Shown one piece after another: positions 5,438 to 22,079 of a stretch of DNA of 24,000 bases; the stretch's first letter is position 1, and each line of letters opens with the position of its first letter. The notes beneath the pieces were generated by a model. It searched no databases. It saw only the letters and a program-made list of their open reading frames with translations, and was not told where the DNA came from. This stretch comes from Rhizobacter sp. (GTDB taxonomy: Bacteria > Pseudomonadota > Gammaproteobacteria > Burkholderiales > Burkholderiaceae_C): the NCBI GenBank assembly GCA_046595475.1, contig JBKJOQ010000059.1; one strand, given 5' to 3'. A program made the translations under genes and the position numbers.

Positions 5438-6427
5438 ATGAAGCCAATGCTTGTGTCAGACGTCGGTTGGTGCATCGCGATGAAGGATGTCTTTACCGCA
5501 TGCGGCCTGGATGCTGAGGCCTTGCTCGCGAAAGCCGGTTTCAACTTCAGCGGTACCGACCAGGTCGACGTCACCGAACTGACCGACGCGTTCAGCCGCG
5601 CGTGGGAATTGGCTGTCGCGCAAACGGGCAACCCGGCGATCGGCCTCACCGCACCGTCGCACCCGCTGAAATCACTGGGCGTGCTGTCGCACATGGTGCT
5701 GTCGGCACCCGACTTGCGCGGCGCCATGCAAGCCATCGTGCGCTTCACGCACCTGATCTCGCCGACCGCCACCTTCGATGCCAAGCTCGATGGCGGCAGC
5801 TGCTTTCTGATCCTTGAAATCGCGCCTGGCCGCAACCCGGTGCCGAGCCAGCGCTACGACTTCTACTCCACCGTGCTCTTGCAAGCCGCGCGCTGGATCA
5901 CCGGGCGCCACCTGACGCCGCGGGCCTTCTATCACCCGGCGCCCACGCCCGCCGACCCCACGCCGTGGCATGAGGCCTACGGCTGCCCGGTGCACTTCGG
6001 CAGCAGCAAATGCATGCTCGAGTTGTCGAGCGCCGACCTCTCGCTGCCGATTCCCACCGCCGACCCGCGCGTGGCCGACCTGTGCGACCGCCTCGCCACG
6101 CAAGTGGCTGAGCAGCAAGGCGGCTCGGTCAGCATCCGCGTGCGCCAGGCACTGCAAAAGATCATCGCCAAGGGCGAGCCGCGCCGTCAGACAGTGGCCA
6201 CCATGCTGTGCATCAGCGAGCGCACCTTGCAGCGTCGGCTTACCGAAGAAGGCACGAGCTTCGCCGAGCTGGTCGACGAAGTGCGGCGCGAACTGGCGCA
6301 GCGCTACTTCAAGCACAGCACCATCAGCTCCACCGAAATCACCTTTGCGCTGGGCTTTGCCGACCCCAGCAATTTCTATCGTGCATGCAAGCGCTGGTTT
6401 GGTCGCTCACCCAGCACCATGCGCTAA
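5438..6427 (+). CDS. AraC family transcriptional regulator (N-terminal AraC-binding-like domain + C-terminal HTH)
   Basis: The C-terminus ...ISERTLQRRLTEEGTSFAELVDEVRRELAQRYF...STEITFALGFADPSNFYRACKRWFGRSPSTMR is a classic double-HTH AraC signature. GGAGAG RBS 7 nt upstream of the ATG. Confidence 0.9.
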   Translation: MKPMLVSDVGWCIAMKDVFTACGLDAEALLAKAGFNFSGTDQVDVTELTDAFSRAWELAVAQTGNPAIGLTAPSHPLKSLGVLSHMVLSAPDLRGAMQAIVRFTHLISPTATFDAKLDGGSCFLILEIAPGRNPVPSQRYDFYSTVLLQAARWITGRHLTPRAFYHPAPTPADPTPWHEAYGCPVHFGSSKCMLELSSADLSLPIPTADPRVADLCDRLATQVAEQQGGSVSIRVRQALQKIIAKGEPRRQTVATMLCISERTLQRRLTEEGTSFAELVDEVRRELAQRYFKHSTISSTEITFALGFADPSNFYRACKRWFGRSPSTMR

Positions 6428-6451: not shown

Positions 6452-6910
6452 ATGATCGAAAGCGCCGAAGCGTTTGCCGAGATGGTCAACAGCACGCCTC
6501 CCGACCCGTTTCGTCTGGCCTGGGCCGAAGCGCCAACGGCGGTGTGGTGGGAGCTCGTGGATCGCTATCCGCATCTGTCGGCCTGGGTGGCTGCAAACCG
6601 CACCGTGCCTGAGGAAGTGCTGGCGCATCTCGCATCCCATGGCAACACACAGGCACGCACGGTCGTGGCCTCCAAGGCCCAACTCCCTGAGCAACTGCTC
6701 TTGATCCTGGCGCACGACAAAGACGAAGCCGTGCGCCTGCGTGTGGCGTTCAATGCGCTGGCCACCCGCGAGGTGCTGGCTTCGCTCGCCAGCGACGCCT
6801 GTCCCGTCGTGCGCATGCACGCGCAAGCGCGCCTCACCCACGGCATCAGTGGCAACAACTTGCCCGCGTCGTATCTCGACTCCGTCAGCCTCGCAGACCT
6901 GCTGCACTGA
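6452..6910 (+). CDS. Hypothetical protein with leucine-rich-repeat-variant / HEAT-like helical repeats
   Basis: Repeats of roughly 23-24 aa: PEEVLAHLASHGNTQARTVVA / PEQLLLILAHDKDEAVRLRVA / TREVLASLASDACPVVRMHA. It starts 24 nt after the AraC stop, so it is probably co-transcribed. No clear RBS. Confidence 0.55.
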   Translation: MIESAEAFAEMVNSTPPDPFRLAWAEAPTAVWWELVDRYPHLSAWVAANRTVPEEVLAHLASHGNTQARTVVASKAQLPEQLLLILAHDKDEAVRLRVAFNALATREVLASLASDACPVVRMHAQARLTHGISGNNLPASYLDSVSLADLLH

Positions 6911-7236: not shown

Positions 7237-7770
7237 ATGAAACTGATCAAACTGTCCGTCCTCGCCGCAGCCCTGGTGCTGAGCTTCTCTGCTTCCGCCG
7301 CCATGACCCCCATCAGCGACTCCGCCCTCAGCGAGGTCACGGGCCAAGACGGCGTGACGATCGCAGGTGACCTGAAAATCAACATCGGCTCGTTCCGCTA
7401 CACCGACACCGACGCCACCGGCGGCTCCGTGTCGTTCAACAACATCGGCATCAACGGCATGTTCGTGATGACCGTGGACATCCTCAATGCCGCAGCCTTC
7501 TCGGGCGGCGTGGGTGCGGCCATGGTCAGCCACGGCCTGACGGCTGCTGAAGCCGCCACGAACCTCACCGCACTGGTGACCAACGGCGTGTACGACAACG
7601 CCAGCGACGTGGTTCAGTTCGCTTTCCCCGCTGCCAACCTCGACACCCGCCTGACCCCGAGCATCTCGGTGGCCTCGATCACCATGGGCCACAGCACGCG
7701 GTCGTTCGGCAGCGTCGCCTTGAACAACATCGACCTGCAAGGCACCAAGATCTGGCTGTGGGCTCACTGA
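7237..7770 (+). CDS. Secreted leader-motif protein P1 (177 aa), candidate major subunit of the cluster
   Basis: GGAG RBS 8 nt upstream. Sec signal [21 protein letters not shown], followed at once by [14 protein letters not shown]. The mature part is Cys-free and G/N/S/T/A/V-rich, with an internal repeat [12 protein letters not shown] / [12 protein letters not shown]. The track ORF start at 7024 was rejected. Confidence 0.8.
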
Positions 7771-7824
7771 GCCATGAGTTGACGGCGCCCTCTCTCTTTG
7801 GGCGCTAGCTCGATGCATCGTTAG

Positions 7825-7860
7825 GCCCCGTGGCCCTCCCGCCACGGGGCATTTGTGTGT
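7825..7860 (+). terminator. Stem-loop (10-bp perfect GC-rich stem) + T-rich tail after P1: terminator or attenuator
   Basis: GCCCCGTGGC-cctccc-GCCACGGGGC at 7825-7850, followed by ATTTGTGTGT. It lies in the 157-nt gap between P1 and P2. Confidence 0.6.
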
Positions 7861-7927
7861 CGCGCTCGTGTGTTGCATCGCTTGCCACTCACTTACCCAA
7901 CTTCGAACCGCCCTATGGGCCACCACC

Positions 7928-8731
7928 ATGCCAGTCCGTTTCACATTCGCTGTTTGCCTCGTCGCCGCTCTGTGTGGCGCGGGCACGGCTGTGCACGCCC
8001 AGGGTGTGGCACTGGCCGACAGCGAACTCTCCAACGTGTGGGGCCAGGCGCTGCTGGACCTCACCAACACCAGCCTCAACGGCTACGACTTCTCTCGAAT
8101 CACGCTTGGCGCCGACATCCAGCTCAGCGCCAACTTGAGCAACGTGCGGCTGGGCGAATACAGCTACGCCGCGCGGAACGCGACCGGCGCCGACATTGAC
8201 CTCGGCCTGTTTCGCTTCGGGCGCAGCGATGGCACCGACGCACAGCGCACGGTGAGCATCACCGACCCCTACTTCGAATTCGTCTACAAGAACAACAGCG
8301 ACGCAGCCACACGCGAAGTGGTGGGCATGCGCCTGGGCTTCGGCAGCATCAAGGGCGATCTCGGCGTGCAGCTCAACGCCGTGAGCGGCTCCTTGCTGAT
8401 CAACGGTGGCGCGCTTGGCACGCTCGATTCGCGCAGCGACACGCTGGGCGGCAAGCGCTGGGACGGCGGGAGCTGCGGCGCCAGCGCCTGCCCCTTCACG
8501 CTGGCACAAATCAGCACGCTTACCGCCGGAGACGCCAGCGGCCCCAGCCGCGACTTCTTCATCTCGGTGCTCAAGCAGGCCGTGCAGTTCCCCGGCACCA
8601 GCGCCGCTGTCGGCGCATCAGACCCGGCGCTGGCCGGCTTCTGGCTCAACTGGCGCGATCGTCTCTCCGCGACCGGACTCAACCAGCCGGTGCCACCCAA
8701 CCTGCCCAAGCTGGCCATCGGCGGCGGCTGA
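7928..8731 (+). CDS. Secreted leader-motif protein P2 (267 aa)
   Basis: Sec signal MPVRFTFAVCLVAALCGAGTAVHA, then QGVA-LADSELSNVWGQ. Start chosen at the Met that yields a signal peptide; the track start at 7853 lies in the terminator tail. Confidence 0.72.
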   Translation: MPVRFTFAVCLVAALCGAGTAVHAQGVALADSELSNVWGQALLDLTNTSLNGYDFSRITLGADIQLSANLSNVRLGEYSYAARNATGADIDLGLFRFGRSDGTDAQRTVSITDPYFEFVYKNNSDAATREVVGMRLGFGSIKGDLGVQLNAVSGSLLINGGALGTLDSRSDTLGGKRWDGGSCGASACPFTLAQISTLTAGDASGPSRDFFISVLKQAVQFPGTSAAVGASDPALAGFWLNWRDRLSATGLNQPVPPNLPKLAIGGG

Positions 8732-8733
8732 AC

Positions 8734-9654
8734 ATGATGCGCAGTACCCGCTCCTTGTCAGCGCATGCCCTGTGCGCGCTCACCTTGCTGGCCAGCGCCG
8801 CCTGCCACGCCGGCGGCCTGCAGCCGCTGAACGACGCCGAGCTGTCGGCCGTGAGCGGTGCCGACGGCCTGGCCTTCAACCTGCGCGGCTTCTCGCTCTC
8901 GGGCCCGATCACGTTGACCTACACCATGCCCGGCCCGGCAGGCAATTCGCTGTGGCTCTCAGACTTCGCGCTGTCGCGCAGCGACGACCTGGCCACCACC
9001 TTCAGCGACCCCTACCGCCTGCAAGTGCTGGCGCGCGGCAACGGCCTCGCCGATGTGATCCGCCTGAGCGAACCAGAGAACGCCAACGGCTTGCTCAAGT
9101 GGCAGTTCGCTGCCGACTGGGGCGTCAACGCCGATGGCATGAGCTTTCATGGCGGTGCGCTGGTGGTGCAAGACCTGGTCACCCGCGGCGGCAGCCTGAC
9201 GCTGACCACCCCCGCGGCCGCTGACGTGGAAGGCATTGCCTTCGGCGCCGCCCTGCGCATCGACATTGCCAACCTGATGCTGCGCCCGCGCGGCCGTGAC
9301 GACACCAGCAACCCCGACCCGGCCACTGTGAGCGAGCAATGGCGCTTGTCGGGCATACACCTCGGCGCGGCCTCCAGCAGCGGCGTGCTGCTGGGCTCGC
9401 CGTGGGCGATTGCCGATGCCACCACCCAGCCGGGCATCGTCAACGCCGTGACCGATGCCAGTGGCAACTCGAACCTGCACATCGGCATCGACTGGCCCAC
9501 CAACGGCAACAGCGCAGCCATCGGCGGCCTGCTGATCGACAACATCACGTTCAAGAGCAGCACCCTGCCCGGCGGCATGCTCGATCTGGGCTCGAGCCGC
9601 GTTGGCACGATGCAGATCCAGTACCTAGACGTGAAGCTCAGGGCGGGGTTCTAA
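8734..9654 (+). CDS. Secreted leader-motif protein P3 (306 aa) with an OMP-like C-terminus
   Basis: Signal MMRSTRSLSAHALCALTLLASAACHA, then GGLQP-LNDAELSAVSGADG. Ends in ...QIQYLDVKLRAGF (alternating hydrophobic residues, terminal Phe). Only 2 nt after the P2 stop. Confidence 0.75.
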   Translation: MMRSTRSLSAHALCALTLLASAACHAGGLQPLNDAELSAVSGADGLAFNLRGFSLSGPITLTYTMPGPAGNSLWLSDFALSRSDDLATTFSDPYRLQVLARGNGLADVIRLSEPENANGLLKWQFAADWGVNADGMSFHGGALVVQDLVTRGGSLTLTTPAAADVEGIAFGAALRIDIANLMLRPRGRDDTSNPDPATVSEQWRLSGIHLGAASSSGVLLGSPWAIADATTQPGIVNAVTDASGNSNLHIGIDWPTNGNSAAIGGLLIDNITFKSSTLPGGMLDLGSSRVGTMQIQYLDVKLRAGF

Positions 9655-9655
9655 C

Positions 9656-10120
9656 GTGCGTGCCTTTTTCCCCCTGTTGCTGCTGGTACCGATGCTGGCC
9701 TGCGCCAACCCGGTGGCCTTGAGCGACGAAGAACTGTCTGGCGTCTGCGGTCAAGACGGCATCGGCCTGGCCATACACCTGGAACTGAATTCGGCGCTGA
9801 TCGCAAGCGGCGTCTTGAACAGCAGCCTCACCGCCGGCTTCAAGGTCAACGGAACGACCACCTATGCCGTGGTGCAAAACCTCGGCGGTGTGCTCGACCT
9901 GATCGGCCTCACGCTCAACATCCACACCCGCAGCGACGGCGGCGGCGATTACATCGACCTGGGGCTGCCCAGCTTCGTTGGCTTCAAGCAGTTCGGGTTT
10001 CGCGCCCTGGGCGCGCAGACCGACCCCAGCGCCGCGATTGCACCGAGCGGCAGCTACGGCCAGGTGCTTCTCAACGGCACGGGCACGATGACCGGCCACC
10101 TCTTGATCTGGGCGCAATAG
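9656..10120 (+). CDS. Secreted leader-motif protein P4 (154 aa)
   Basis: GTG start 1 nt after the P3 stop. Signal MRAFFPLLLLVPMLACA, then NPVA-LSDEELSGVCGQDG. The C-terminus GQVLLNGTGTMTGHLLIWAQ aligns with the P1 C-terminus [20 protein letters not shown]. Confidence 0.75.
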   Translation: MRAFFPLLLLVPMLACANPVALSDEELSGVCGQDGIGLAIHLELNSALIASGVLNSSLTAGFKVNGTTTYAVVQNLGGVLDLIGLTLNIHTRSDGGGDYIDLGLPSFVGFKQFGFRALGAQTDPSAAIAPSGSYGQVLLNGTGTMTGHLLIWAQ

Positions 10121-10138
10121 CGCCGACTAAGGCACAGC

Positions 10139-10903
10139 ATGTGGATGATCCTGCTCGGCGTGGCCGCCGTGTTGATCAGCGGTGCGGGCATCAGCTCGCA
10201 AACACCGCCTCAACCGCAACCCAAAGACAAGTTCGAGCTGCCGATGGCACGCGTGGGCGGCGGCCCCGCGCCCGACACCGTGGCCATCGTTCCGTACTCG
10301 GAATTCAAGTACCAGAACATCGTTCGCCAAGCCTACGACTACAGCTGCGGCTCGGCCGCGCTGGTGACCGTGATGAAAAGCTACCTCGGCGTTCAAGTCT
10401 CCGAGGAGCAGGCCATGGAAGGCATGCTGGCCCACGGTGAGCGCGAGAACATCGTGACGCGGCGCGGCTTCTCGCTGCTCGACATGAAGCGCTACCTCGC
10501 CACGCTGGAGATCAGCTCAGCGGGCTTTCGCGCCGAGATGTCCGACCTGGCCACGCTGAAGGAGCCCGGCATCGTGCCGATCGAGTACGCCGGCTTCAAG
10601 CACTTCGTCGTGTTCCGCGGCCTGCGCGACGGGCGCGTGTACCTGGCCGATCCGTCCATGGGCCACATCACCTTCCCGGCGGAAGAGTTCGCCAAGCTGT
10701 GGGACCGCAACACCCTGTTCGTGCTGTACCCGGCCAAGAACAACCCCGTCACCCTCAGCAAGCTTGCGCTGACCGACCGCGAGCTGGGTGTGATCGACGG
10801 CGACCTGGTTCGCACTGAAGCCATCTTCCCCCAACTCGACCGGACCGAAGCCCTGCGCAGCGCAGTGCAATCGGGGCTCGGCACCTTCAACTTGCGAAAA
10901 TGA
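10139..10903 (+). CDS. Stand-alone C39-family (bacteriocin-processing type) cysteine peptidase, signal-anchored/periplasmic
   Basis: N-terminal hydrophobic segment MWMILLGVAAVLISGAG. The block RQAYDYSCGSAALVTVMKSY has Gln 6 residues before the catalytic Cys (codon 10346-10348). Downstream are FKHFVVFRG (His) and YLADPS (Asp). AAGG RBS. The stop overlaps the next start (ATGA). Confidence 0.85.
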   Translation: MWMILLGVAAVLISGAGISSQTPPQPQPKDKFELPMARVGGGPAPDTVAIVPYSEFKYQNIVRQAYDYSCGSAALVTVMKSYLGVQVSEEQAMEGMLAHGERENIVTRRGFSLLDMKRYLATLEISSAGFRAEMSDLATLKEPGIVPIEYAGFKHFVVFRGLRDGRVYLADPSMGHITFPAEEFAKLWDRNTLFVLYPAKNNPVTLSKLALTDRELGVIDGDLVRTEAIFPQLDRTEALRSAVQSGLGTFNLRK

Positions 10904-11949
10904 AAGCAGCCCTCTTCATCCCCCTCCTGCTGCTCTGCAGCGCGGTCACCGCCCAGACCACCGCTCCCGCACCAGACACGCCAGCCGCGCCGGCCACGCC
11001 TGCCTCGGCCCCCGCCACAGCCGACGCCGCACGCGGCGCCCTCGCCAAGAAAGAAGGCGACTTCGACCAGGCCAAGCTGCTGAAAGAAACGCTCACCGCC
11101 TCCGACAAGCAGTACTCACTGCTCAAGACGGGCAAATACGCCGTCACCTACGACCTCACCTACTCGTACATCGGCCAGCAGCAGATCCAGGCCGCGTTTA
11201 CCGACTCGCTGCTCACGCTGTTCGACATCCAGAACACGCGCTCGCACACCGTCACCAACACCGTGTCGACCGACTACGGTGTGAAAGACAACTTCACTGC
11301 GAACGTGACGCTGCCCTTCGTGAGCAAGTATTCGCAGTCCGAGGCCTTCACCGGCTTGTCCAGCGCGTTTGGCGACATCTCAATCGGCGCGCGCTTCCAG
11401 CCCTTCTCGCTCAGGCGCGATCTGCCCACGTTCACCGTCACCGGCGGGCTGCGCCTGCCCACCGGCCGCAGCCCCTTCAAGACCATCGACGGCCAGGGCC
11501 TGGCCACCGGCGCCGGCTACACCTCGGCCACGGTGGGCATGAACGTGTCGCAGGTGGTCGACCCCGTCGCGCTGTTCGGCTCGCTCAACCTCACGCTCGG
11601 CAAGAGCGCCAAAGGCCTGAGCCAAACGCGTGCCGGCAAAACCCTGACCGAAGTGCACCCCGGTGACAGCATCGGCTTCGGCTTCGGCATGGCCTACGCC
11701 ATGTCGTACAACATCTCGACCACGGTGGCGTTCCAGGAGTCGGTCTCCGCACGCAGCCGGCTCTTCCTGCGCGACAGCAATGGCGTGGACTCTGACGTCA
11801 AGACCGCCCCGCAGACCTCGGCCATGCTCAACCTGGGTCTGGGCGTGCGGGTCTCGCCTCTCACCACGATCAACTTCACCGTGGGCATAGGCCTGAGCAA
11901 CGACAGCCCCGACTTCACCCTCGGCATGAACATGCCGCTGCATTTCTGA
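10900..11949 (+). CDS. Outer-membrane beta-barrel protein (resembles the MetA-pathway/phenol-degradation 'transporter' OMP family) with an N-terminal PT/A linker and charged helix
   Basis: Signal MKAALFIPLLLLCSAVTA. It is followed by a low-complexity stretch, QTTAPAPDTPAAPATPASAPATADA, and a charged segment, ALAKKEGDFDQAKLLKETL. The rest shows alternating beta-strand patterns and ends ...FTLGMNMPLHF (terminal Phe). Family assignment is from pattern memory, not a search. Confidence 0.72.
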   Translation: MKAALFIPLLLLCSAVTAQTTAPAPDTPAAPATPASAPATADAARGALAKKEGDFDQAKLLKETLTASDKQYSLLKTGKYAVTYDLTYSYIGQQQIQAAFTDSLLTLFDIQNTRSHTVTNTVSTDYGVKDNFTANVTLPFVSKYSQSEAFTGLSSAFGDISIGARFQPFSLRRDLPTFTVTGGLRLPTGRSPFKTIDGQGLATGAGYTSATVGMNVSQVVDPVALFGSLNLTLGKSAKGLSQTRAGKTLTEVHPGDSIGFGFGMAYAMSYNISTTVAFQESVSARSRLFLRDSNGVDSDVKTAPQTSAMLNLGLGVRVSPLTTINFTVGIGLSNDSPDFTLGMNMPLHF

Positions 11950-11959
11950 GCGCAGCGCC

Positions 11960-13591
11960 GTGATCTCGAAAGCGCCTAGCCCGCGCGCGGGCCGCAGGGC
12001 CCTGGCGGCCTGCGCCGCGGCCGCCTCGGTCGTGGCGGCACTGCCGGCACGCGCCGCCTTCATCGAAACCATCGGCACGAGCCCGGTCGCCATGTCGCTC
12101 GGCAACGCTGTGACGGCCGACCCGCCCGGCCTCGACGCCATCCACTTCAACCCGGCCGGCCTGACGCACATCAAGGGCAACACGCGGCAAGACACCATCT
12201 TCGGCGCGTCGACCAAGCCTTACGCCCACTTCACGCAGCCCGCTGGCTTCGACATCGGAGGCTTTAAAGACGACCCGCTGGCCAACACCTCGACCGGCCC
12301 GGTGCGCCAGGCCATCTACCTGCCCATCGTCGGCCCGCCCAAGGCGCGCCTGCCCTTCGGGCTTGCCGCCGGCTTGGGCTTTGCTTACCACGAAGAAGGC
12401 TCGCCCTGGACCTTCGCCACCGCCACCTATCTGCCGCAAGCCGTGGGCTTTGACCGCAGCCGCGACCCGAACGACCCCGGCCGCTACGACGGGCGCCGTG
12501 TCGTGATCCAGCGCCTGGTCTACCTTTCGCCCTCGATCGGCTACAAGGCTTCGGACACCTTGAGCCTGGGCATTGCAGTGCCCATCGCGCACCAAGGCTT
12601 TGCGCTCAACACCGACATGCGCTTCCCCAACAAGCTGCTGGGCGTCATCGGCAAGCTGCAAGACGCCTGGTGCGGCGACAACAGCAACCCACTCGACGCG
12701 TTCGCCTTCGGCCTGTGCGACGGTGGCAACAAGGCCGGCCACCTGCGCCCGTTCGAAAAAGCCGGCAGCATGGAATTCGAGATGACCTCGCCCGCCGACC
12801 CGACGCTCAACCTCGGTGTGCTGTGGGAGCCCAAGAGTTGGTTTGGCATGGGTGCCGTGTACCAGTCGGGCTCCAAGACCGTACTCACCGGGCGCTACAG
12901 CTTTCAGTCGGAAGAGATGTTCCGCAGCTTCGTGCATGGCATGTACAGCAGCCTGCTCGGGCCAGTGGTGGCCTCGACCTTCGGCTTCCCGACCTCAATC
13001 CCGCCCATTCAAAGCGGCAACGCCACGCTGATCATGCCGCTGCCCGAGCACATTCAGGTGGGCATCAAGTTCAAGCCCTTCGAGCGCGTGCAGATCAACT
13101 TCGACGCCAACTGGACGCACTGGAAAGACTGGGACAAGCTCACCTTCCAGTTCGACCAGCCGGTGGCCCTGCTGGAGATGGCGCGCATTTTCGGCCAGAC
13201 CGATTCATCCCGACTCGTCATTCCGCGCGGCTACAAGAGCACCATCCACTACGGTGTGGGCCTGCAAGTGCGCGTGACCGATTCGCTCATGCTGCGCGCC
13301 GGCTACGAGCCGCGCAAGGCCTCGGTGACAAACTCGGTGCTGGACCTCATCGCCCCGCTACCCGACGTCACCATCAAGAGCCTCGGGGTCGGCATTCGAA
13401 CCCACGACGGCCTGCAAATCGACCTGGGCGCAAGCTACGCCAGCGGCAAGTTCAACATCCCTGCCGAGGGCAGCTGCAACTTGAATTGCAGCAACTTCTT
13501 CAACGCCGTTTACAACCCCTATGCCGGCCTCGACGTGAGCGGTGGCATCCGCATCCGCTACTACGGCATCACCCTGTCCAAGCCATTCTGA
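11960..13591 (+). CDS. Outer-membrane transport protein, OMPP1/FadL/TodX-like (543 aa)
   Basis: GTG start. Signal ...AASVVAALPARA. The N-terminal block GTSPVAMSLGNAVTADPPGLDAIHFNPAGLTHI is typical of the FadL family. Ends in IRIRYYGITLSKPF. Longer than the typical roughly 430-aa FadL. Confidence 0.8.
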   Translation: MISKAPSPRAGRRALAACAAAASVVAALPARAAFIETIGTSPVAMSLGNAVTADPPGLDAIHFNPAGLTHIKGNTRQDTIFGASTKPYAHFTQPAGFDIGGFKDDPLANTSTGPVRQAIYLPIVGPPKARLPFGLAAGLGFAYHEEGSPWTFATATYLPQAVGFDRSRDPNDPGRYDGRRVVIQRLVYLSPSIGYKASDTLSLGIAVPIAHQGFALNTDMRFPNKLLGVIGKLQDAWCGDNSNPLDAFAFGLCDGGNKAGHLRPFEKAGSMEFEMTSPADPTLNLGVLWEPKSWFGMGAVYQSGSKTVLTGRYSFQSEEMFRSFVHGMYSSLLGPVVASTFGFPTSIPPIQSGNATLIMPLPEHIQVGIKFKPFERVQINFDANWTHWKDWDKLTFQFDQPVALLEMARIFGQTDSSRLVIPRGYKSTIHYGVGLQVRVTDSLMLRAGYEPRKASVTNSVLDLIAPLPDVTIKSLGVGIRTHDGLQIDLGASYASGKFNIPAEGSCNLNCSNFFNAVYNPYAGLDVSGGIRIRYYGITLSKPF

Positions 13592-13597
13592 TCTGCC

Positions 13598-14161
13598 ATG
13601 AAAACTCTGATCACACGCACCATGGTTCACGCCACCCTGGCCTTCACGCTGCTCGCCTGGGGCAACGCGGCCTTGGCGCAACAGGCCGCCACCGACGAAA
13701 AGCAAAAGCTGGTGCAGCGCGTGCTCACGCTGTGGCACATCGAAGACACCGCTGTGGTCATGGTGCAGCGGCCCGCGCTTGACGCCATGCAGCAGGCACG
13801 CATCGCTTTGCAAGGGCGCGTGGGCGCGGCCAAGCAAGAGGCCACGCTGAAAGACATCGCCACCGACCTGCAGAAATACATCGACGAAGCGACGCCCATC
13901 GTGAAAGAAAACGCCAAGCGCGTGAAGGCTCCCACGCTCACCCCGCTGCTGATGCAGAACTTCAATGAAGAAGAGCTGCGCCAGCTGATCGCTTTGCTCG
14001 AATCACCGGTGAAGAAGAAGTTCGAGCAGTTGGTGCCGCAATTTGAGCGTGCCTTCGGCGAGAAGGTCGCAGCCGATGCCCACGCCGCGATCGACCCCAA
14101 GCTGCAAGAGATGACCAAAGCGGTGGGCTTGAAGCTTCGCGCGGCTTCTATGACTCCTTGA
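13598..14161 (+). CDS. Periplasmic DUF2059-like protein
   Basis: Signal MKTLITRTMVHATLAFTLLAWGNAALA. The mature part is all-helical and K/E/Q-rich, with the block FNEEELRQLIALLESPVKKKFEQL that matches my recollection of DUF2059 (F..eEl..l..Fy.sp.g.k). 6 nt after the FadL-like stop. Confidence 0.65.
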   Translation: MKTLITRTMVHATLAFTLLAWGNAALAQQAATDEKQKLVQRVLTLWHIEDTAVVMVQRPALDAMQQARIALQGRVGAAKQEATLKDIATDLQKYIDEATPIVKENAKRVKAPTLTPLLMQNFNEEELRQLIALLESPVKKKFEQLVPQFERAFGEKVAADAHAAIDPKLQEMTKAVGLKLRAASMTP

Positions 14162-14197
14162 CGTAACCCATGACGTGACCCCATACGGTTCGTTCAG

Positions 14198-14259
14198 CTC
14201 CGTTCGGCCTGAGGTATCGAAGGCCAGCGCCGGGCTTCGATACCTCAGCCCGAACGGAG
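14198..14259. repeat. 62-nt near-perfect inverted repeat (25-bp arms, 1 mismatch, 12-nt loop)
   Basis: CTCCGTTCGGCCTGAGGTATCGAAG (14198-14222) pairs with CTTCGATACCTCAGCCCGAACGGAG (14235-14259). No U-tract follows. It lies in the only sizeable gap (144 nt) within the distal part of the cluster. Confidence 0.8.
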
Positions 14260-14305
14260 ATGGGGGGCTGTTGGGCTTAGACGACCAGCCTTGTGACCTG
14301 ACCCT

Positions 14306-16036
14306 ATGACAACGATGCACCCCTTGCTGACCCAGCGCCTGCTGGCACTGCTGCTGGCAGCCCTGCTCACGGCCTGCGGCGGCGCCACCACGGGCGGCGT
14401 CTCGGCCACGCCCTCGGGCGCGGCGGCCTTGTCGCTCAGCCTAGCCGGCAGCGCGCACCCTGGGGTCGACCATGTGTGGGTAACGGTCAGCGCGGTTGCC
14501 CTGCACACCGACGCTGACCGCGCCTGGTCGCCCACCGACACCAGCTGGCAGGTGATGCCGCTGGCGCAGCCGCTCACGATCGACATCGCCTCGCTGACCA
14601 ACGGCGTCATCGCCTCGCTCTTCAGCGGCAAAGCCCTGGCGCCTGCCACCTACACGCAGCTGCGGCTGTTCGTGCTGGCACACGACGACACACTGGCCGC
14701 GTCGGCCAAAAACCTGAGCCTGCTCTACAACGCGCAAGTCAGCAGCACCGACAGCGCAGGCACCGTGCACCAGCTGCCGCTAGAAATGCCCGGCACCAGC
14801 CTGGGCCTGCGCGTGGGTTTGGGCGTGGACGCAGGTGTGGGCGACCCGATCACGGCGATCGCCAGCACGCTCAGCAGCATCACGCTGCAGTGGGATCTGG
14901 AACACAGCCTGGTTCATTTCACCGCCGACGATGGGGTGGACCGCTACACCCTGCGCCCCGACCTGCGGGCCTTTGACCTGGCCCGCACGGGCGCCATCGT
15001 CGGCTTGATCGACAAATCGCTGCTGTGCAGCGCCGGCACACGCAACGGCTGCATAGACAACATCGTGATCACCGCCCAGCTGCCAGCCAGCGATGGCAGC
15101 GCCAACGTGAGCGTGCGTTCCACACCCGTGACCGTGGGCGCGAGCTATGCCCTCTTTGCGCTGTACCCACTGCCGGCGTCGCCCACCGGCCAGTTCGACG
15201 TGGTGATCCGCGGGCGCAACATGCAGACCATGGTGGTGCGCCATGTGCCGGCAAGCACCGCCGACCTGCTGGCCACGGCGCCCACGCAGCTCGGCGCCAA
15301 CCCGGGCGACCCCGCCCATCCCATTCCGATGCTCCCCGTGCTGAGTGCGCAAGGCGATGCTCAGGCCAGCCTCTCAAGCGCGCTGTCGCCGCACAGCGCT
15401 CAGCTGGTGTTCGGCCAGACGCTAGCGGGGACGGGTGAGCTGCCCTACGAAGTGGTGATTGCCAACACCGACCCCTTCACTGGCTTGCTCGCGCAGCCCG
15501 TGGCATTGCCCAGCGGCCCGCTGCGCGTGGCGACCTATTCGGCCGACGCGGTGCTCAGCTTCAGCGACGTGACACCGCAAGAAGGACCAGACCGCTACAC
15601 GCTGCGCGCCCACGGGACGCGCTACGACGACCCAGGTGCGCCCAGCAGCGTGTTGGCTACGGGTGGCAGCAATTTCAGCGTGGCTGCGGCCAGCCCACAA
15701 CGCAAAAACACCCTGGGTCTCGCAACGCTAACGCTCAGCGTGAGCGGCGGCTCAACGCAGCGTTTCGACGCAGCGCAAGTGCTGGTGACCGACGTGGCAG
15801 GCATCGTGAGCACGCAAGACATCTCGGCGCTCATCGGCCAGAGCGGTGCGCAGGTCTCGCTGCCGTTGCCCGCAGGCGCGATTGCCGCCGCGCTCGGCGG
15901 CACGGCGGTCTACACCGTGGAAGTGCGCGCCTGGCAACGCGCCACACCCGCGCAGAGCCTGCAGTGGGTGCGCGTGCCAGCGCCGCTTGACCTGCGCAAC
16001 ACCAGCTCGGCCAGCGTGGCCATCACGCTGCCATAG
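14306..16036 (+). CDS. Large lipoprotein, DUF4382-like N-terminal domain (576 aa)
   Basis: Lipobox LLAALLTAC-GG. The N-terminal region ...VDHVWVTVSAVALHTDADRAWSP...LTIDIASL...TYTQLRLFV resembles DUF4382. The remainder is Ala/Ser/Thr/Val/Leu-rich and beta-rich. The start codon (14306 vs 14315) is uncertain. Confidence 0.68.
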   Translation: MTTMHPLLTQRLLALLLAALLTACGGATTGGVSATPSGAAALSLSLAGSAHPGVDHVWVTVSAVALHTDADRAWSPTDTSWQVMPLAQPLTIDIASLTNGVIASLFSGKALAPATYTQLRLFVLAHDDTLAASAKNLSLLYNAQVSSTDSAGTVHQLPLEMPGTSLGLRVGLGVDAGVGDPITAIASTLSSITLQWDLEHSLVHFTADDGVDRYTLRPDLRAFDLARTGAIVGLIDKSLLCSAGTRNGCIDNIVITAQLPASDGSANVSVRSTPVTVGASYALFALYPLPASPTGQFDVVIRGRNMQTMVVRHVPASTADLLATAPTQLGANPGDPAHPIPMLPVLSAQGDAQASLSSALSPHSAQLVFGQTLAGTGELPYEVVIANTDPFTGLLAQPVALPSGPLRVATYSADAVLSFSDVTPQEGPDRYTLRAHGTRYDDPGAPSSVLATGGSNFSVAAASPQRKNTLGLATLTLSVSGGSTQRFDAAQVLVTDVAGIVSTQDISALIGQSGAQVSLPLPAGAIAAALGGTAVYTVEVRAWQRATPAQSLQWVRVPAPLDLRNTSSASVAITLP

Positions 16037-16054
16037 GCCGAGGAAGCATGGGGC

Positions 16055-16465
16055 TCAATGCCCGGGTTCGGCCTTTTTGGGCGGCGGCACCATCAAAAAT
16101 GGAAACGGCAAGGCCAGCATAGGCAGAAAGAGCGTGTCCAGCGGCAGGGAGACGGTGGCCGCCGATGCGCTTTGCACCAGGCCCACCGAACCGAGCGTGG
16201 TCACGGCGGCGAACTTGTATTGCGCCAGGGCTTGCTGGCGATCGAAGTGAGCCCAGTCCATCCAAGGTGAAGCAGCGGGCGCGGTGTCGGCACTGCCCAG
16301 CAGAATGTTGCGCAGCAGCGGGTCGCTCAGGCCGGCGGCGTGCACGGCCGACAGTTCGCTGTCAGCCAGCAGGCGCCCGGGGCTTTCCATCGCCTGGCTG
16401 GCCACGGTGATCAAGGCGAGCAAGGGCGCGGCCAGGCTCCGCACAAGAACGCGGGTGTTTTTCAT
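16055..16465 (-). CDS. Secreted leader-motif protein P5 (136 aa), divergent paralogue with a hydrophobic Pro/Phe-rich tail
   Basis: GGAG RBS 6-7 nt upstream of the ATG at 16465. Signal MKNTRVLVRSLAAPLLALITVASQA, then MESPGRL-LADSELSAVHAAG, with the motif G-[QA] replaced by A-A. C-terminus LDTLFLPMLALPFPFLMVPPPKKAEPGH. Convergent, 18 nt from the lipoprotein stop. Confidence 0.6.
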   Translation of the reverse strand: MKNTRVLVRSLAAPLLALITVASQAMESPGRLLADSELSAVHAAGLSDPLLRNILLGSADTAPAASPWMDWAHFDRQQALAQYKFAAVTTLGSVGLVQSASAATVSLPLDTLFLPMLALPFPFLMVPPPKKAEPGH

Positions 16466-17810: not shown

Positions 17811-18248
17811 TTATTCCGCGCGCACCCACGTCTGGGTGCGACCCAAGAGCGGCGTGCCGATGTAGCCGCGCACCTCGAGCTTGCGGCCGCCGTCCAGGGG
17901 CTTCAGGCGAACCCGGTAGGTCTTGCCGTTGTTGGGGTCGAGGATTTCGCCACCCGACCACACCTCTTCGTCAGGCTGCTTGCTGACGTTGCTCAGGATG
18001 ATCAGGCCCACCAAGCGCTGGTTCTTGCGGTCGTCACCGCACTGGTCGCAGACCGATTCCCTCTTCGACGCGTCGAACAAGGACTCGATGCGCCCGGTCA
18101 AACGCCCGCCGGTCTCTGTCACACGCACGATCGACTTCTCAGTCTTGCCGTCGTCGTCGATCGTCTTCCACACGCCAACGGGGCTGGCTTGCGCCCAGGC
18201 GGCACACGCGCCAAGAGCCAGGGTCACCGCAGCAATGAAACGCTTCAT
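17811..18248 (-). CDS. DUF2147 domain-containing periplasmic protein
   Basis: Signal MKRFIAAVTLALGACAAWA. Blocks GVWKTIDDDGKTEKSIVRV...GRLTGRI and GGEILDPNNGKTYRVRLKPLDGGRKLEVRGYIGTPLLGRTQTWVR match the DUF2147 pattern. AGGAG RBS. Confidence 0.85.
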   Translation of the reverse strand: MKRFIAAVTLALGACAAWAQASPVGVWKTIDDDGKTEKSIVRVTETGGRLTGRIESLFDASKRESVCDQCGDDRKNQRLVGLIILSNVSKQPDEEVWSGGEILDPNNGKTYRVRLKPLDGGRKLEVRGYIGTPLLGRTQTWVRAE

Positions 18249-19036: not shown

Positions 19037-20752
19037 TCACGCCAAGGGCGCGACCGCGACGCGGTTGCGCCCTTCTTTTTTGGCCCGGTAAAGCGCGTTG
19101 TCGGCCTGCTCCAGCAGCTGAGCGGCATCGAGCCGCGCGTGACCCAGGCACAGCCCGATGCTGATGGTGACGCTCAAGCCTGCGGCCACCTCGTCCCAGC
19201 CGTGGCCTTCGATGGCCGCGCGCAGCCGCTCGCAGGCCTCACCGGCCCACTCGAGCGTTGACGAAGCAAAGACGATCAGAAACTCTTCGCCGCCCGTGCG
19301 TGCGATCAGATCGCCGCCGCGCACACGCGCACGGAACAGGTCGGCCGTGGCCATCAGCACTGCATCACCCACGGCATGCCCGAAGCGGTCGTTCACCTGT
19401 TTGAAGTGATCGAGGTCGAGCACCGCCACAGCCAAAGGGACACCGGTGCGCGTGCTGTGTGACATGAGGCGCGGCAGCTCGCGCTCCACCTGGCGGCGGT
19501 TGCCCAGGCCGGTGAGCGGGTCGGCCAGCACATAGCGGCCCAGCTCGCGAGCCTGCGCCTGCAGGCGCTCGGCTTCGGCAGCCATCTGCTCGGCGCGCAC
19601 CCGCTGCAGCTCAGCCTGCATGCGTGAGCGCTCGGCGCCGAAGAGGGCTTGGTCGAGCTCCAGCCGGTTCATCATCAGGCGCGATTGAGCATCACAGCGC
19701 TGTTCCAGCTGCTCTTTGGTGAGGGCGTGGTACGCCTCGTGGTGTGCGAGCGCCTCGCCCAGGTCGCCACGCGCCTTGTGCGCCAGGTAGAGCTGCAGGT
19801 GCATGTCACGCACCATGGCGTTGGCATAGAGCTCTTGGGCGCCGGCCAGCGCTTCATTCAGCAAGGGCACGGCTTCGTCATAGCGCTTGCCTCGCACCAG
19901 CAGCTCGGCGCGGCTGCCATCAGAGGCCAGCACCAGCGCGCGGTGGCCATGCTGCACGGCGAGCGCGCGCGAATGGTCGAGCAGCGTGTAGGCCGCCTTC
20001 TCTTGCCCGCTCACGCCAAGGTAGCGGCCCAGATTCGACAGCGTCAGCGCCTCGCGATAGGCGTTGCCCGACCGGCGCGCCACGTTGAGCGCTTCTTCAC
20101 CATGGCGGCGCGCGCGCTCCATGGCGGCCTGGGCGCCCACGAGGTCACCACGCGATTCAAGGGCGTCGAAGGCATCGGAGGCCACCACTCCCAGGTTGGT
20201 GAGCGCGCGGTAGATCTCTTCTTCGCTTTGCAGCTCGCGCGCCATGGCAAGCGACTCGGCTAGAAATCGCTCGCCCTCTTCGAAGCGCCCCAAATGCCCC
20301 TTGGTCAGGCCCACGCGGTTGTAGGCCAGGCACAGCAGGCCTGCATCACCGCAGGCGCGTGCAGCTTCCACGCTTTCGCTGACGTGGTCTAGCGCCTCGG
20401 CATTCAGACCGAGGTCGAGCAGCGCCATCGCCATGTTGCACAGCACTTCGGCACGCGCCGCGTCGTCACCCGTCTCACGCAGGGTGGGCAGCACGGCCTG
20501 CCCGGCAGCAATGGCCTGCTCAGCCAGGCCTTCGCGGCAATTGAGCGTCACCAGCAGGCGCAGCGCTTTCGAAAGGCTCGCGCTGTCTTGGGCGTCTCGC
20601 GCCAGAGCCTCGGCTCGCAAGGCGAGCTCGATGCCGCGGGCATGCTCGTCCCGCTCGGATGCCTGCTGGGCCTGCTGCAGCAGGGCGATCAGCGAGGCAG
20701 GGGCTGCCGCCACATGTGGCGCGTGGGATGCTTGCGTGCCGGGCGGGTTCAT
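19037..20752 (-). CDS. Diguanylate cyclase: N-terminal TPR-like repeats + coiled coil + GGDEF domain (GGEEF active site, RxxD I-site)
   Basis: GGEEF is encoded at 19280-19294 (minus strand) and preceded by RGGD-LIART, an I-site at the canonical 5-residue distance. VAVLDLDHFKQVNDRFGHAVGD is a typical GGDEF block. The N-terminal two thirds are helical repeats (ALxxxAxA...). Start set at the Met (20752) that avoids overlap with the upstream gene; the start is uncertain. Confidence 0.9.
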   Translation of the reverse strand: MNPPGTQASHAPHVAAAPASLIALLQQAQQASERDEHARGIELALRAEALARDAQDSASLSKALRLLVTLNCREGLAEQAIAAGQAVLPTLRETGDDAARAEVLCNMAMALLDLGLNAEALDHVSESVEAARACGDAGLLCLAYNRVGLTKGHLGRFEEGERFLAESLAMARELQSEEEIYRALTNLGVVASDAFDALESRGDLVGAQAAMERARRHGEEALNVARRSGNAYREALTLSNLGRYLGVSGQEKAAYTLLDHSRALAVQHGHRALVLASDGSRAELLVRGKRYDEAVPLLNEALAGAQELYANAMVRDMHLQLYLAHKARGDLGEALAHHEAYHALTKEQLEQRCDAQSRLMMNRLELDQALFGAERSRMQAELQRVRAEQMAAEAERLQAQARELGRYVLADPLTGLGNRRQVERELPRLMSHSTRTGVPLAVAVLDLDHFKQVNDRFGHAVGDAVLMATADLFRARVRGGDLIARTGGEEFLIVFASSTLEWAGEACERLRAAIEGHGWDEVAAGLSVTISIGLCLGHARLDAAQLLEQADNALYRAKKEGRNRVAVAPLA

Positions 20753-20777
20753 CAAGGTCGCACTGCGGGGCTTGAGA

Positions 20778-22079
20778 TCAAGCGGGCAAGTCGCTGGGTT
20801 GCAAGGCTGTGGCGAGTACCTTGTCGACACGCTTGCCGTCGAGGTCGACCACCTCAAAGCGCCAGCTTTCCCACTCCACCGAATCGGTGGTCTGGGGCAG
20901 GCGGCCCAGCAGCAGCATCACCATGCCGGCCAGTGTGTTGTAGCGGCCGCGGTCTTCTTCGGGCAGGTCTTTCAGGCTCAGGCGGTCTTTCAGCTCCGGC
21001 ACCGGAATCAACCCATCAAAGAGCCAGCTGCCGTCGGCACGTTGGATGGCCCAGGCATCTTCGGCGGCTGGCGTAGTGAACTCGCCTGTGATCGTTTCCA
21101 TCACGTCGCGCACGGTGATCACGCCCTGCACCTCGCCGTATTCATCGACAACAAAAACCAGCTGCGCACTCGACGCCCGAAACTGGTCCAGCAGCTCCAT
21201 GCCCGAGAGCGTTTCGGGCACGAACACCGGCGGTTGCAGCTTTTCGGTGAGCGACAGTGGCTGGCCCTGCAGCTGCTGCTGCAGCAGCGTCTGTGCCGAC
21301 ACCACGCCCAGCACGTCGTTGAGCCCGCCGCGGCACACCGGGTAGCGCGAATGCTCTTGCCCTGCAATGGCTGCGAGCACGGTTTCCAGCGGCGCCACGG
21401 CGTCGAGCCAGACGATGTCAGTGCGCGGGATCATCATCGAGCCCACCGAGCGGTCATCGAGGCGGAACACGTTGCGCACCATCTGGTGCTCTTGCGCCTC
21501 GATCACGCCGGCGTCCAAGCCCTCTTCGAGGCTGGCAGCAATTTCTTCTTCCGTCACCGAGCGGCTGGGGCCACCGTGAATCCCCATCAGGCGCAGCGTG
21601 GCCTCAGTGCACCACGACAGCAGCTTCACGAAAGGCCGCACCGCCAACGAGAGCCACTCCATGGGGTGCGCCACCAGGCGTGCCACGGTTTCGGGATACA
21701 TCTGGCCGACCCGCTTGGGCACCAACTCGCCGAAGATGATGGTCACGAAGGTGATGCACATCACCACCAGCGCGGTCGCTGAGATGCCAGCCATCTTGGG
21801 CGTGACACCAAAGCTGCTGACCAGCCACGCCCCCAACGGCTCGGAAAAAGCCGCTTCGCCGACGATGCCATTGAGCACGCCGATCGAGGTGATGCCGATC
21901 TGCACCGTGGAGAGAAACTTGGTCGGGTTCTCGTGCAGATCCATTGCGACCTGCGCGCTGGAGTCTCCGGTCTCCACCATCACCTGCAGCCGCGCCCGGC
22001 GGCTGGCGGTGAGCGCCATCTCTGACATGGCGAACAACCCGTTGAGCAGTATCAGGAAGGCAAGAAGAGCTGTTTCCAT
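20778..22079 (-). CDS. Hemolysin-family/CNNM protein (DUF21 transmembrane domain + CBS pair + CorC_HlyC domain; TlyC/CorC-like)
   Basis: The N-terminus METALLAFLILLNGLFAMSEMAL is the typical CNNM/DUF21 start. It is followed by ELVPKRV, a CBS pair region (MIPRTDIVWLD...SRYPVC...GVVSAQTLL...VVDEYGEVQGVITVRDVME) and a C-terminal CorC_HlyC region (...NTLAGMVMLLLGRLPQTTDSVEWESWRFEVVDLDGKRVDKV). Confidence 0.9.
   Translation of the reverse strand: METALLAFLILLNGLFAMSEMALTASRRARLQVMVETGDSSAQVAMDLHENPTKFLSTVQIGITSIGVLNGIVGEAAFSEPLGAWLVSSFGVTPKMAGISATALVVMCITFVTIIFGELVPKRVGQMYPETVARLVAHPMEWLSLAVRPFVKLLSWCTEATLRLMGIHGGPSRSVTEEEIAASLEEGLDAGVIEAQEHQMVRNVFRLDDRSVGSMMIPRTDIVWLDAVAPLETVLAAIAGQEHSRYPVCRGGLNDVLGVVSAQTLLQQQLQGQPLSLTEKLQPPVFVPETLSGMELLDQFRASSAQLVFVVDEYGEVQGVITVRDVMETITGEFTTPAAEDAWAIQRADGSWLFDGLIPVPELKDRLSLKDLPEEDRGRYNTLAGMVMLLLGRLPQTTDSVEWESWRFEVVDLDGKRVDKVLATALQPSDLPA

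Follow-up and report, generated by a model that had tools for sequence, protein, structure and literature searches.

We analysed a window of 24,000 nt of Rhizobacter sp. contig JBKJOQ010000059.1, in which a cluster of ten genes (positions 7237-16465) encodes five proteins with a common leader motif (P1-P5), a C39 peptidase, two outer-membrane barrels, a DUF2059-like protein and a DUF4382 lipoprotein. We consider it probable that this cluster is a Fil-type (DUF6160) pilus biogenesis operon, whose subunits would be exported by Sec, freed of a propeptide by the C39 peptidase in the periplasm, passed through a FapF-like channel and polymerised outside the cell. The original prediction, made from the DNA letters, had proposed an uncharacterised surface-fibre or secretion system. 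The system turned out to have a name already, as NCBIfam models FilA-FilD as a 'putative pilus system', and it is not categorically new, given that the family is named (Fil, DUF6160) and a homologous filament has been solved. The domain of unknown function under which such proteins had been said to be catalogued is DUF6160, the Pfam match of P1. The biogenesis logic proposed here, i.e. periplasmic C39 maturation of a double-glycine-type propeptide, was not found in the literature searched.

P1 (7237-7770, + strand), the predicted major pilin precursor, matches Pfam DUF6160 with an E-value of 1.5e-23 (83.3 bits, cut-off 27) and NCBIfam FilA with 9e-10 (38.4 bits), the latter over the N-terminus only (residues 3-66). 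It consists of a Sec signal (residues 1-22), a double-glycine-type propeptide of ~15 aa and a mature domain running from D38 to the C-terminal H177. When the PDB was searched with a profile of P1 homologues, a single entry was matched, 9XFV (E 1.7e-68), which has 25 chains and is described as 'bacteria pilus (like)'; in phmmer, its chain A aligns to P1 from D38 to H177 (2e-46). This entry (EMD-66838) is 'pilus-like-alpha', a helical filament from karst-cave drip water with a rise of 11.70 Å and a twist of 283.86 degrees (PMC12956863). In that study the filament was assigned to UniProt A0A257CJ09 and served solely as a handedness control, with no analysis of the genes or biogenesis of the protomer (PMC12956863). 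The 173-aa chain is identical to residues 38-210 of P0236 from Burkholderiales bacterium PBB6, whose precursor reads MKFAKLTAVAAILGALSVSASA, then MTAIDDSTLSTVSGQ, then DGVSIAG...WMWAH. All residues from the first after G-Q through the C-terminus are present in the filament model, and none before. Such a start is what cleavage at a double-glycine-type site predicts, although the enzyme that cuts is not thereby proven. The protomer has the leader and a C-terminal W-x-W-A-H in common with P1 and is 53% identical to it in the Foldseek alignment; it differs by a 33-residue insertion, and its source is uncultured. An AlphaFold2 model of P1 (predicted local distance difference test, pLDDT, 69.5) shows a mixed alpha/beta globular fold. 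Foldseek returned 9xfv as its sole match in the PDB (E 5.8e-16, template-modelling score, TM, 0.62), and none of the known pilin folds was matched there. The idea of a Sec-dependent, nucleotide-independent route to a surface fibre is therefore supported, in that a close homologue of P1 forms an extracellular helical filament.

Directly after their signal peptides, P1-P5 have in common the motif L/I-x-D-x-x-L-S-x-V-x-G-Q/A. It appears as HAQG-VALADSELSNVWGQ before ALL in P2, as LQPLNDAELSAVSGA before DG in P3 and as VALSDEELSGVCGQ before DG in P4, while P5 (LLADSELSAVHAAG) has A-A at -2/-1 where P1-P4 have G-Q or G-A. A hidden Markov model (HMM) of the leader, built from the related loci described below and run on 1.53 Mb, gave 127 occurrences, 99 of them unique, and all lie at most 6.1 kb from a C39 gene. 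Positions are counted back from the residue after the Gly, and frequencies refer to the 99 unique windows. The seed pattern imposed -2, -7 and -10, restricted -12 to L/I/V/M/F/T and partly constrained -1. Where the pattern left positions free, V/I was found at -4 in 89 windows, M/L at -15 in 71, E/D at -8 in 62 and D-G at +1,+2 in ~60%. Position -12 is L/M/I/V in all 99, i.e. within the residues that the pattern allowed, and -1 is mostly Q (Q 73, A 14, G 7, S 3, R 2). G at -2, L/M at -7 and D/E at -10 are near-invariant, all three being set by the pattern. The determinants of double-glycine leaders are Leu-12, Glu-8, Leu-7 and Val-4, followed by GG, GA or GS (PMC6363468). Judged by these positions, the motif has the register of a double-glycine leader, placed behind a Sec signal. 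In both AlphaFold2 models (P1 and P3) the leader stretch is a short helix. The FilA profile, too, aligns with leader fragments, over its positions 18-40, suggesting that FilA of Acinetobacter carries the same element.

The candidate enzyme for removing this propeptide is a stand-alone C39 cysteine peptidase of 254 aa (10139-10903, +), FilB/FapD-like and predicted to be periplasmic or tethered to the inner membrane by its hydrophobic, uncharged N-terminus, which reads as a signal or an anchor. It matches Pfam Peptidase_C39 (5e-18), and in NCBIfam FilB is its best match (1e-65, 221.7 bits), followed by FapD (7.6e-37, 127 bits). Across an alignment of 40 diverse stand-alone homologues Q64, C70, H155 and D171 are invariant, and the structures nearest to the peptidase profile are double-glycine proteases, namely LahT150 (6mpz, 8e-16), PCAT1 (4ry2) and ComA. 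The alternative that survives best retains a Fil-type pilus operon, but has the peptidase act on the machinery, e.g. on a plug or linker of the FapF-like barrel, and not on the subunits; in that case the motif would serve for targeting or for binding a chaperone, and it would be cut off by another protease or be disordered in the filament. In its favour, the periplasmic C39 enzyme of Fap, FapD, is catalytically required, its target 'remains unclear', and cleavage of FapF or FapE by it has been suggested (PMC5557850). Gln at -1 is also atypical for C39 sites, and 22 loci have the peptidase and both barrels with no leader protein nearby. We nevertheless find this alternative rather unlikely, since the motif stands in the exact register of leaders that C39 enzymes recognise, co-occurs with the peptidase gene, and is followed in the solved filament by a subunit that begins precisely at the predicted scissile bond.

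The Fil-type reading is further carried by the conservation of the machinery. The stand-alone peptidase family comprises 937 clusters (50% identity) at E <= 1e-10, and at least 594 species-level genomes encode a related stand-alone C39 peptidase, a count in which Fap-type loci may be included. We kept the 80 top-ranked loci (L001-L080), 32 of them from Burkholderiales, and searched the window proteins against their open reading frames; L081-L084 are further close relatives of the window outside this set. Hosts of related loci include Pseudomonas, Marinobacter, Alcanivorax and many Burkholderiales, while Acinetobacter is counted as a host from the Fil literature and the NCBIfam models, not from these loci. 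The nearest named relatives of the window proteins belong to Rhizobacter, Piscinibacter and Ideonella. In all 73 loci with at least 2.9 kb downstream, the C39 gene is followed on the same strand by a FilC-like and then a FadL-like gene, the FilC-like gene always directly after C39 and the FadL-like gene always after the FilC-like one. The expected synteny across genomes was thus found, and the barrels are never separate from the peptidase in the loci examined. Among the 32 Burkholderiales loci, a complete P1-P2-P3-P4 cassette is present in 28, a DUF2059-like gene after the FadL-like gene in 30, an AraC regulator near the cluster in 27, and the DUF4382 lipoprotein in 4. The cassette is at times divergent or has AraC inserted, and Pseudomonas loci carry a single P1-like gene directly upstream of the peptidase. 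Gene order identical to that of the window is found in L083 and L084. From these comparisons, the unit conserved in Burkholderiales appears to be eight of the ten genes plus AraC, with DUF4382 and P5 lineage-specific. The ten-gene unit first proposed therefore stands for eight genes, loses two as lineage-specific and gains the regulator. Match scores to the Fil models drop stepwise from Alloalcanivorax through Pseudomonas to the window, and in Alloalcanivorax (L061) FilA exceeds the NCBI cut-off (235.5 versus 220).

Of the two barrels that follow the peptidase, barrel 1 (10900-11949, +) has FilC as its best NCBIfam match (2e-80, 270.8 bits) and FapF as its second (1.9e-22, 80 bits); it also matches the FapF crystal structures 5o65, 5o67 and 5o68 (6e-17), and Pfam Phenol_MetA_deg weakly (4e-6). 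Barrel 2 (11960-13591, +) is a FilD-like member of the FadL/OmpP1 family, with matches to Pfam Toluene_X/FadL (1.1e-43), NCBIfam FilD (3e-122, 408.6 bits), PDB 3dwo (1.6e-5) and, weakly, a PorV family (1e-6). It carries the N-terminal NPA hatch motif of the FadL/OmpP1/TodX family (...IHFNPAGL...). The peptidase and barrel 1 are thus true homologues of FapD and FapF, and the Fap-like logic seen at first sight holds to that extent. By analogy, barrel 1 would serve as the export channel for the subunits and barrel 2 as an assembly platform or shuttle. A different reading would make the two barrels a transport module for hydrophobic compounds (hydrocarbons, fatty acids or wax esters), with the leader proteins and peptidase as separate neighbours. 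The Pfam names Toluene_X/FadL and Phenol_MetA_deg point that way, as do the frequency of the family in hydrocarbon and wax-ester bacteria and the presence of WS/DGAT and fatty acyl-CoA reductase genes where the cluster ends in L081 and L082. We judge it very improbable, because barrel 1 matches FilC and the FapF structures far better than Phenol_MetA_deg, because the order C39-barrel-barrel holds in 73/73 loci with genes overlapping or near-touching, and because neither the window nor most of the loci contain the wax-ester genes.

Returning to the putative pilins of the Fil-type operon, P4 (9656-10120, +) is predicted to be a P1-like minor pilin precursor, its mature domain being homologous to that of P1 over the full length (hhalign 95.4% probability, E 1.9e-8). 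Between P1 and P2 lies a GC-rich hairpin (7825-7850, +), a probable partial terminator or attenuator, with a perfect 10-bp stem of 9 GC pairs followed by the T-rich tail ATTTGTGTGT; P1 itself has a ribosome-binding site, GGAGA, 7 nt 5' of its ATG. In the loci of Duganella, Janthinobacterium and Roseateles, P1 genes occur in tandem duplicate. Because of this duplication and the hairpin after P1, P1 fits the major subunit and P4 a minor pilin. P2 (7928-8731, +; 267 aa) and P3 (8734-9654, +; 306 aa) are leader-bearing exported proteins whose mature parts are weakly alike (hhalign 49.7% probability). P2-P4 match DUF6160 in Pfam only below threshold. We rejected P2 and P3 as P1-type pilins, as hhalign of the mature parts gave a probability of only 1-5%, and regard them as candidate leader-dependent accessory or tip proteins. 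P3 has 272 homologues, every one annotated as hypothetical; its AlphaFold2 model is all-beta (pLDDT 86, predicted TM score 0.76) and had no significant match in the PDB, either by Foldseek fold or by sequence profile. The top Foldseek matches of P3, non-significant at a probability of <=0.2, include several lipid-transfer/TULIP-like proteins (CETP, JHBP, Der p 7). P5 (16055-16465, - strand) is convergent to the other genes. A 138-aa homologue, 56% identical, occupies the same position in L083, where HAAG is kept, as are the A-A and a C-terminal hydrophobic stretch followed by PPPKKAEPGH; no P5 homologue was found in L001-L080. P5 is thus a real gene, and it may encode an uncleavable leader protein. 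As to the five paralogues originally claimed, the leader motif is common to all (with A-A in P5), yet mature parts are demonstrably homologous only between P1 and P4, with P2 and P3 weakly alike.

That the cluster makes a Fap- or curli-like functional amyloid, as the homology of the peptidase and barrel 1 to FapD and FapF might suggest, is scarcely credible. P1-P5 have no Q/N-rich imperfect repeats and no matches to the FapA, FapB, FapC or FapE models of NCBIfam; the filament of the P1 homologue consists of folded subunits with alpha-helices and an 11.7 Å rise, not a 4.8 Å cross-beta spacing (PMC12956863); and the P1 model is globular. We rejected the amyloid reading on the missing repeats and the folded 9XFV subunits, and the expectation that the subunits would be unlike FapB/FapC or CsgA proved right, as they are unrelated. 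Equally improbable are secreted bacteriocin-like toxins or signalling proteins matured by C39: a double-glycine-like leader is typical of bacteriocins, and the leader fragments match bacteriocin-leader HMMs, if non-significantly (E ~0.1, the fragments being too short for such a test), but the cluster contains neither an immunity gene nor an ABC exporter, its products have Sec signals and lengths of 136-306 aa, and the P1 homologue is a filament protomer.

For the Fil-type operon we propose the following mechanism. P1, P4, P2 and P3 would be made as prepro-proteins, each with a Sec signal, a propeptide of ~15 residues and a mature domain. After Sec export and the signal-peptidase cut, the propeptide would form a short amphipathic helix with determinants like those of a bacteriocin double-glycine leader, i.e. 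hydrophobic residues at -15/-12/-7/-4, acidic ones at -8/-10, Gly at -2 and Gln/Ala/Gly at -1. The stand-alone C39 peptidase, facing the periplasm, would recognise this helix and cut after G-Q (or G-A, G-G), leaving a mature N-terminus D-G-[VI]-[ST]. The FapF-homologous barrel would then let the subunits across the outer membrane, the FadL/PorV-like barrel acting as assembly or anchoring partner, and outside the cell the subunits would polymerise, still folded, into a helical filament. Export would be driven by folding and polymerisation, not by ATP. The DUF2059-like protein may act as a periplasmic helper and the AraC regulator may control the operon, and the hairpin after P1 would raise the ratio of major subunit to machinery. 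Parts homologous to FilA-FilD, a strict gene order, an intact catalytic set, a motif conserved in the double-glycine register and a close P1-homologue filament starting after G-Q are what we observe; C39 as the enzyme of the cut and the order of the steps are what we infer from them, and the parts given here to the two barrels, P2, P3, the DUF2059-like and DUF4382 proteins and P5 are likewise proposals.

Several points weigh against this mechanism. The start of the 9XFV model could also mean that residues 23-37 of the precursor are disordered in the filament or were removed by a protease other than C39. Position -1 is mostly Gln, unlike the classical GG/GA/GS site, P5 lacks the Gly at -2, and the near-invariance of -2, -7 and -10 is partly circular, as it stems from the seed pattern. 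All four Fil models score far below the NCBI cut-offs, and the window proteins are homologues but not equivalogs of the Acinetobacter proteins. The proposed roles of the barrels come solely from analogy with FapF and PorV. In 22 gammaproteobacterial loci with the C39-FilC-FilD triad, no leader protein was found within 10 kb; these come from Marinobacter, Oleiphilaceae and Bermanella and include L043, L044, L046, L049, L052, L054, L058, L060, L062, L063, L065, L066, L070, L072, L073 and L076-L079, among others. Either these loci must have their substrate genes in another place, or the substrates have diverged too far for the leader HMM to find them. Finally, the downstream genes of the window and those that occupy the FilE and FilF positions in gammaproteobacterial loci do not appear homologous. 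There, a periplasmic protein or lipoprotein with DUF4124 and MalM follows FilD (L053, 13383-14564; L073, 13555-14598), presumably at the FilE position, and L061 also carries a 674-aa lipoprotein at the FilF position; no NCBIfam model matched the proteins at these two positions. In BLASTP, the DUF2059-like protein gave one weak local match to the L053 protein (27 bits, 24% identity), and the DUF4382 protein showed no significant similarity to the L061 lipoprotein. We therefore rejected DUF4382 as FilF and the DUF2059-like protein as FilE, and treat them as non-homologous occupants.

The remaining features of the cluster were as follows. All ten open reading frames were recovered, and the gaps originally reported follow from their coordinates: 2, 1, 18, -4, 10 and 6 nt from P2 to the DUF2059-like gene, then 144 nt. 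Every product has an export signal as claimed, read directly from the sequence as Sec-type in P1-P5, both barrels and the DUF2059-like protein, as a hydrophobic anchor or signal in the C39 protein, and as a lipobox (LLTAC, then GG) in the DUF4382 protein. Pfam and NCBIfam showed none of the ten products to have an ATPase, ABC transporter, usher or secretin domain, in agreement with what had been noted. Both predicted stem-loops, the hairpin after P1 and a palindrome in the 144-nt gap, are present, and the calls of C39, both barrels and DUF4382 were borne out by Pfam (C39, Toluene_X/FadL, Phenol_MetA_deg and DUF4382). Less firm is the DUF2059 call for the periplasmic helical protein encoded at 13598-14161 (+), a candidate chaperone or adaptor, which scores below threshold in Pfam (18.7 bits, cut-off 23.6) and matches the DUF2059 entries 3oao and 2x3o at E 0.005. 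The last operon gene, lineage-specific (14306-16036, +), encodes the lipoprotein with DUF4382 (1.8e-14). The large palindrome before it (14195-14262), which takes up the sole long gap between genes of the operon, has 34-nt arms that are 88% complementary, with an RNA fold of -73.6 kcal/mol (z -5.4), and no second copy lies within the window. It is absent from L083 and L084, whose DUF4382 gene overlaps the one before it, suggesting that it is an insertion in the window, probably an inserted element or acquired terminator outside the machinery. Upstream of P1, an AraC-family regulator (5438-6427, +; Pfam Arabinose_bd and HTH_18), the likely transcriptional control of the cluster, lies in the same position in L081 and L083. 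Between AraC and P1, a small cytoplasmic LRV-repeat protein (6452-6910, +) shows weak Pfam LRV_2/LRV matches and no signal peptide; a gene of 152-159 aa is kept at this place in the closest relatives L081, L083 and L084, and its product may be a regulatory partner.

Other genes were observed around the cluster and its relatives. Just downstream in the window are a DUF2147 protein (17811-18248, -) and a TPR-GGDEF diguanylate cyclase (19037-20857, -), both of which L083 has too; expression of the fibre may be linked to cyclic-di-GMP. Two Massilia loci carry one more open reading frame with the leader motif (…LSDEELGEVAGQG…) directly after the DUF2059-like gene (L022, 13924-14670; L032, 13942-14706), which is the DUF4382 slot of the window. 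In L061, a TPR and sulfotransferase gene (7777-9642) lies between FilA and FilB, a hint that the pilus, or a glycan associated with it, may be modified. In L081 (14035-18678) and L082 (7174-11802), the end of the cluster has DUF4382 interspersed with genes for a wax-ester synthase (WS/DGAT) and a fatty acyl-CoA reductase, and a second AraC gene comes next. The hydrocarbon and wax-ester bacteria in which the family is common include Marinobacter, Alcanivorax, Oleiphilaceae and Acinetobacter. Both observations may indicate that the system is connected with hydrophobic surfaces or lipids.

This filament type has been seen in nature by cryo-electron microscopy, yet no account of Fil pilus assembly or biogenesis was found in the literature searched, and no biogenesis pathway is known for the subunit family. 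Some applied interest attaches to it, as FilF has been evaluated as an A. baumannii vaccine candidate (PMC4751259) and A. baumannii induces FilC and FilF in its biofilms (PMC8792954). The tandem of Sec signal and double-glycine propeptide, together with the start of the filament model, gives a concrete, testable first step in periplasmic C39 maturation. If true, a device for maturing bacteriocins in the cytoplasm has been put to use again on the far side of the inner membrane, for building a pilus whose subunits have a new fold, and such periplasmic re-use of the leader/C39 pair would surprise a specialist. We give roughly even chances to a broader reading, that Fil pili and Fap amyloids are two branches of one unrecognised outer-membrane pathway, defined by a periplasmic C39 peptidase, a FapF-type barrel and subunits with a Sec signal then a double-glycine-type propeptide, with the FadL/PorV-like partner in the Fil branch. 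Until its removal in the periplasm, the propeptide would prevent the subunits from assembling or direct them to the channel. This reading, if true, indicates the kind of sequence that FapD would target, and a test of C39 maturation bears on the open question of the FapD substrate.

The assembly classes commonly recognised for Gram-negative pili are chaperone-usher, type IV, type V, curli and Fap, and conjugative. The Fil/DUF6160 filament falls into none of them and forms a class apart; by Pfam and NCBIfam, the ten proteins include no components of chaperone-usher, type IV (PilB/C/Q), type V (Mfa/Fim) or curli (CsgG/E/F) systems. The type IX secretion shuttle PorV resembles barrel 2 in being a FadL-fold outer-membrane protein that acts in protein secretion and not in lipid uptake. 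The window differs in having no other type IX components and no C-terminal sorting domain on its cargo, and the resemblance may serve as a lead to the role of the FilD-like barrel, not as evidence of membership. The C39 domains of PCAT/AMS ABC exporters (LahT150, PCAT1 and ComA) have the same catalytic Gln/Cys/His/Asp set and a leader with Leu-12, Glu-8, Leu-7, Val-4 and Gly-2 in the same register. In contrast to them, the window peptidase is not fused to an ABC transporter, has no ABC gene in the cluster and would act in the periplasm; its leader follows a Sec signal instead of forming the extreme N-terminus, has mostly Gln at -1, and is attached to structural proteins of 14-28 kDa instead of a small peptide.

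The Fap system of Pseudomonas resembles the window in exporting its subunits by Sec and in having a C39 peptidase in the periplasm (FapD, needed for secretion), an outer-membrane barrel dedicated to the system and no nucleotide-driven component. The window peptidase and barrel 1 are homologous to FapD and FapF, at 127 and 80 bits against equivalog cut-offs of 330 and 700, matches that are weaker than those to Fil. Unlike Fap, the window has subunits unrelated to FapB, FapC and FapE, with a homologous filament of folded subunits and not an amyloid; it adds the FadL-family barrel and is without FapA and FapE. The closest system is fil of Acinetobacter, a six-gene operon (filABCDEF; PMC4751259). 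FilA is reported to be the subunit of the Fil pilus in Acinetobacter sp. Tol 5 (PMC11784438), and FilF is a lipoprotein with type II secretion-dependent release, surface localisation having been shown for InvL and not for FilF (PMC12802150). Both clusters have the order DUF6160 subunit, C39 peptidase, FapF-like barrel and FadL-family barrel, and FilA, FilB, FilC and FilD (NF050077-NF050080) are the best NCBIfam matches for P1, the peptidase, barrel 1 and barrel 2. The window differs in its scores against the curated cut-offs (38.4/220, 221.7/475, 270.8/630 and 408.6/970 bits, respectively), in having four upstream leader proteins and a convergent fifth where Acinetobacter has a single FilA, and in its DUF2059-like protein and DUF4382 lipoprotein where gammaproteobacterial loci have a DUF4124+MalM protein and a large lipoprotein. 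On the sequence evidence, the window appears to be a distant Burkholderiales branch of the Acinetobacter fil system, a distinct variant with a multi-subunit cassette and different accessory genes.

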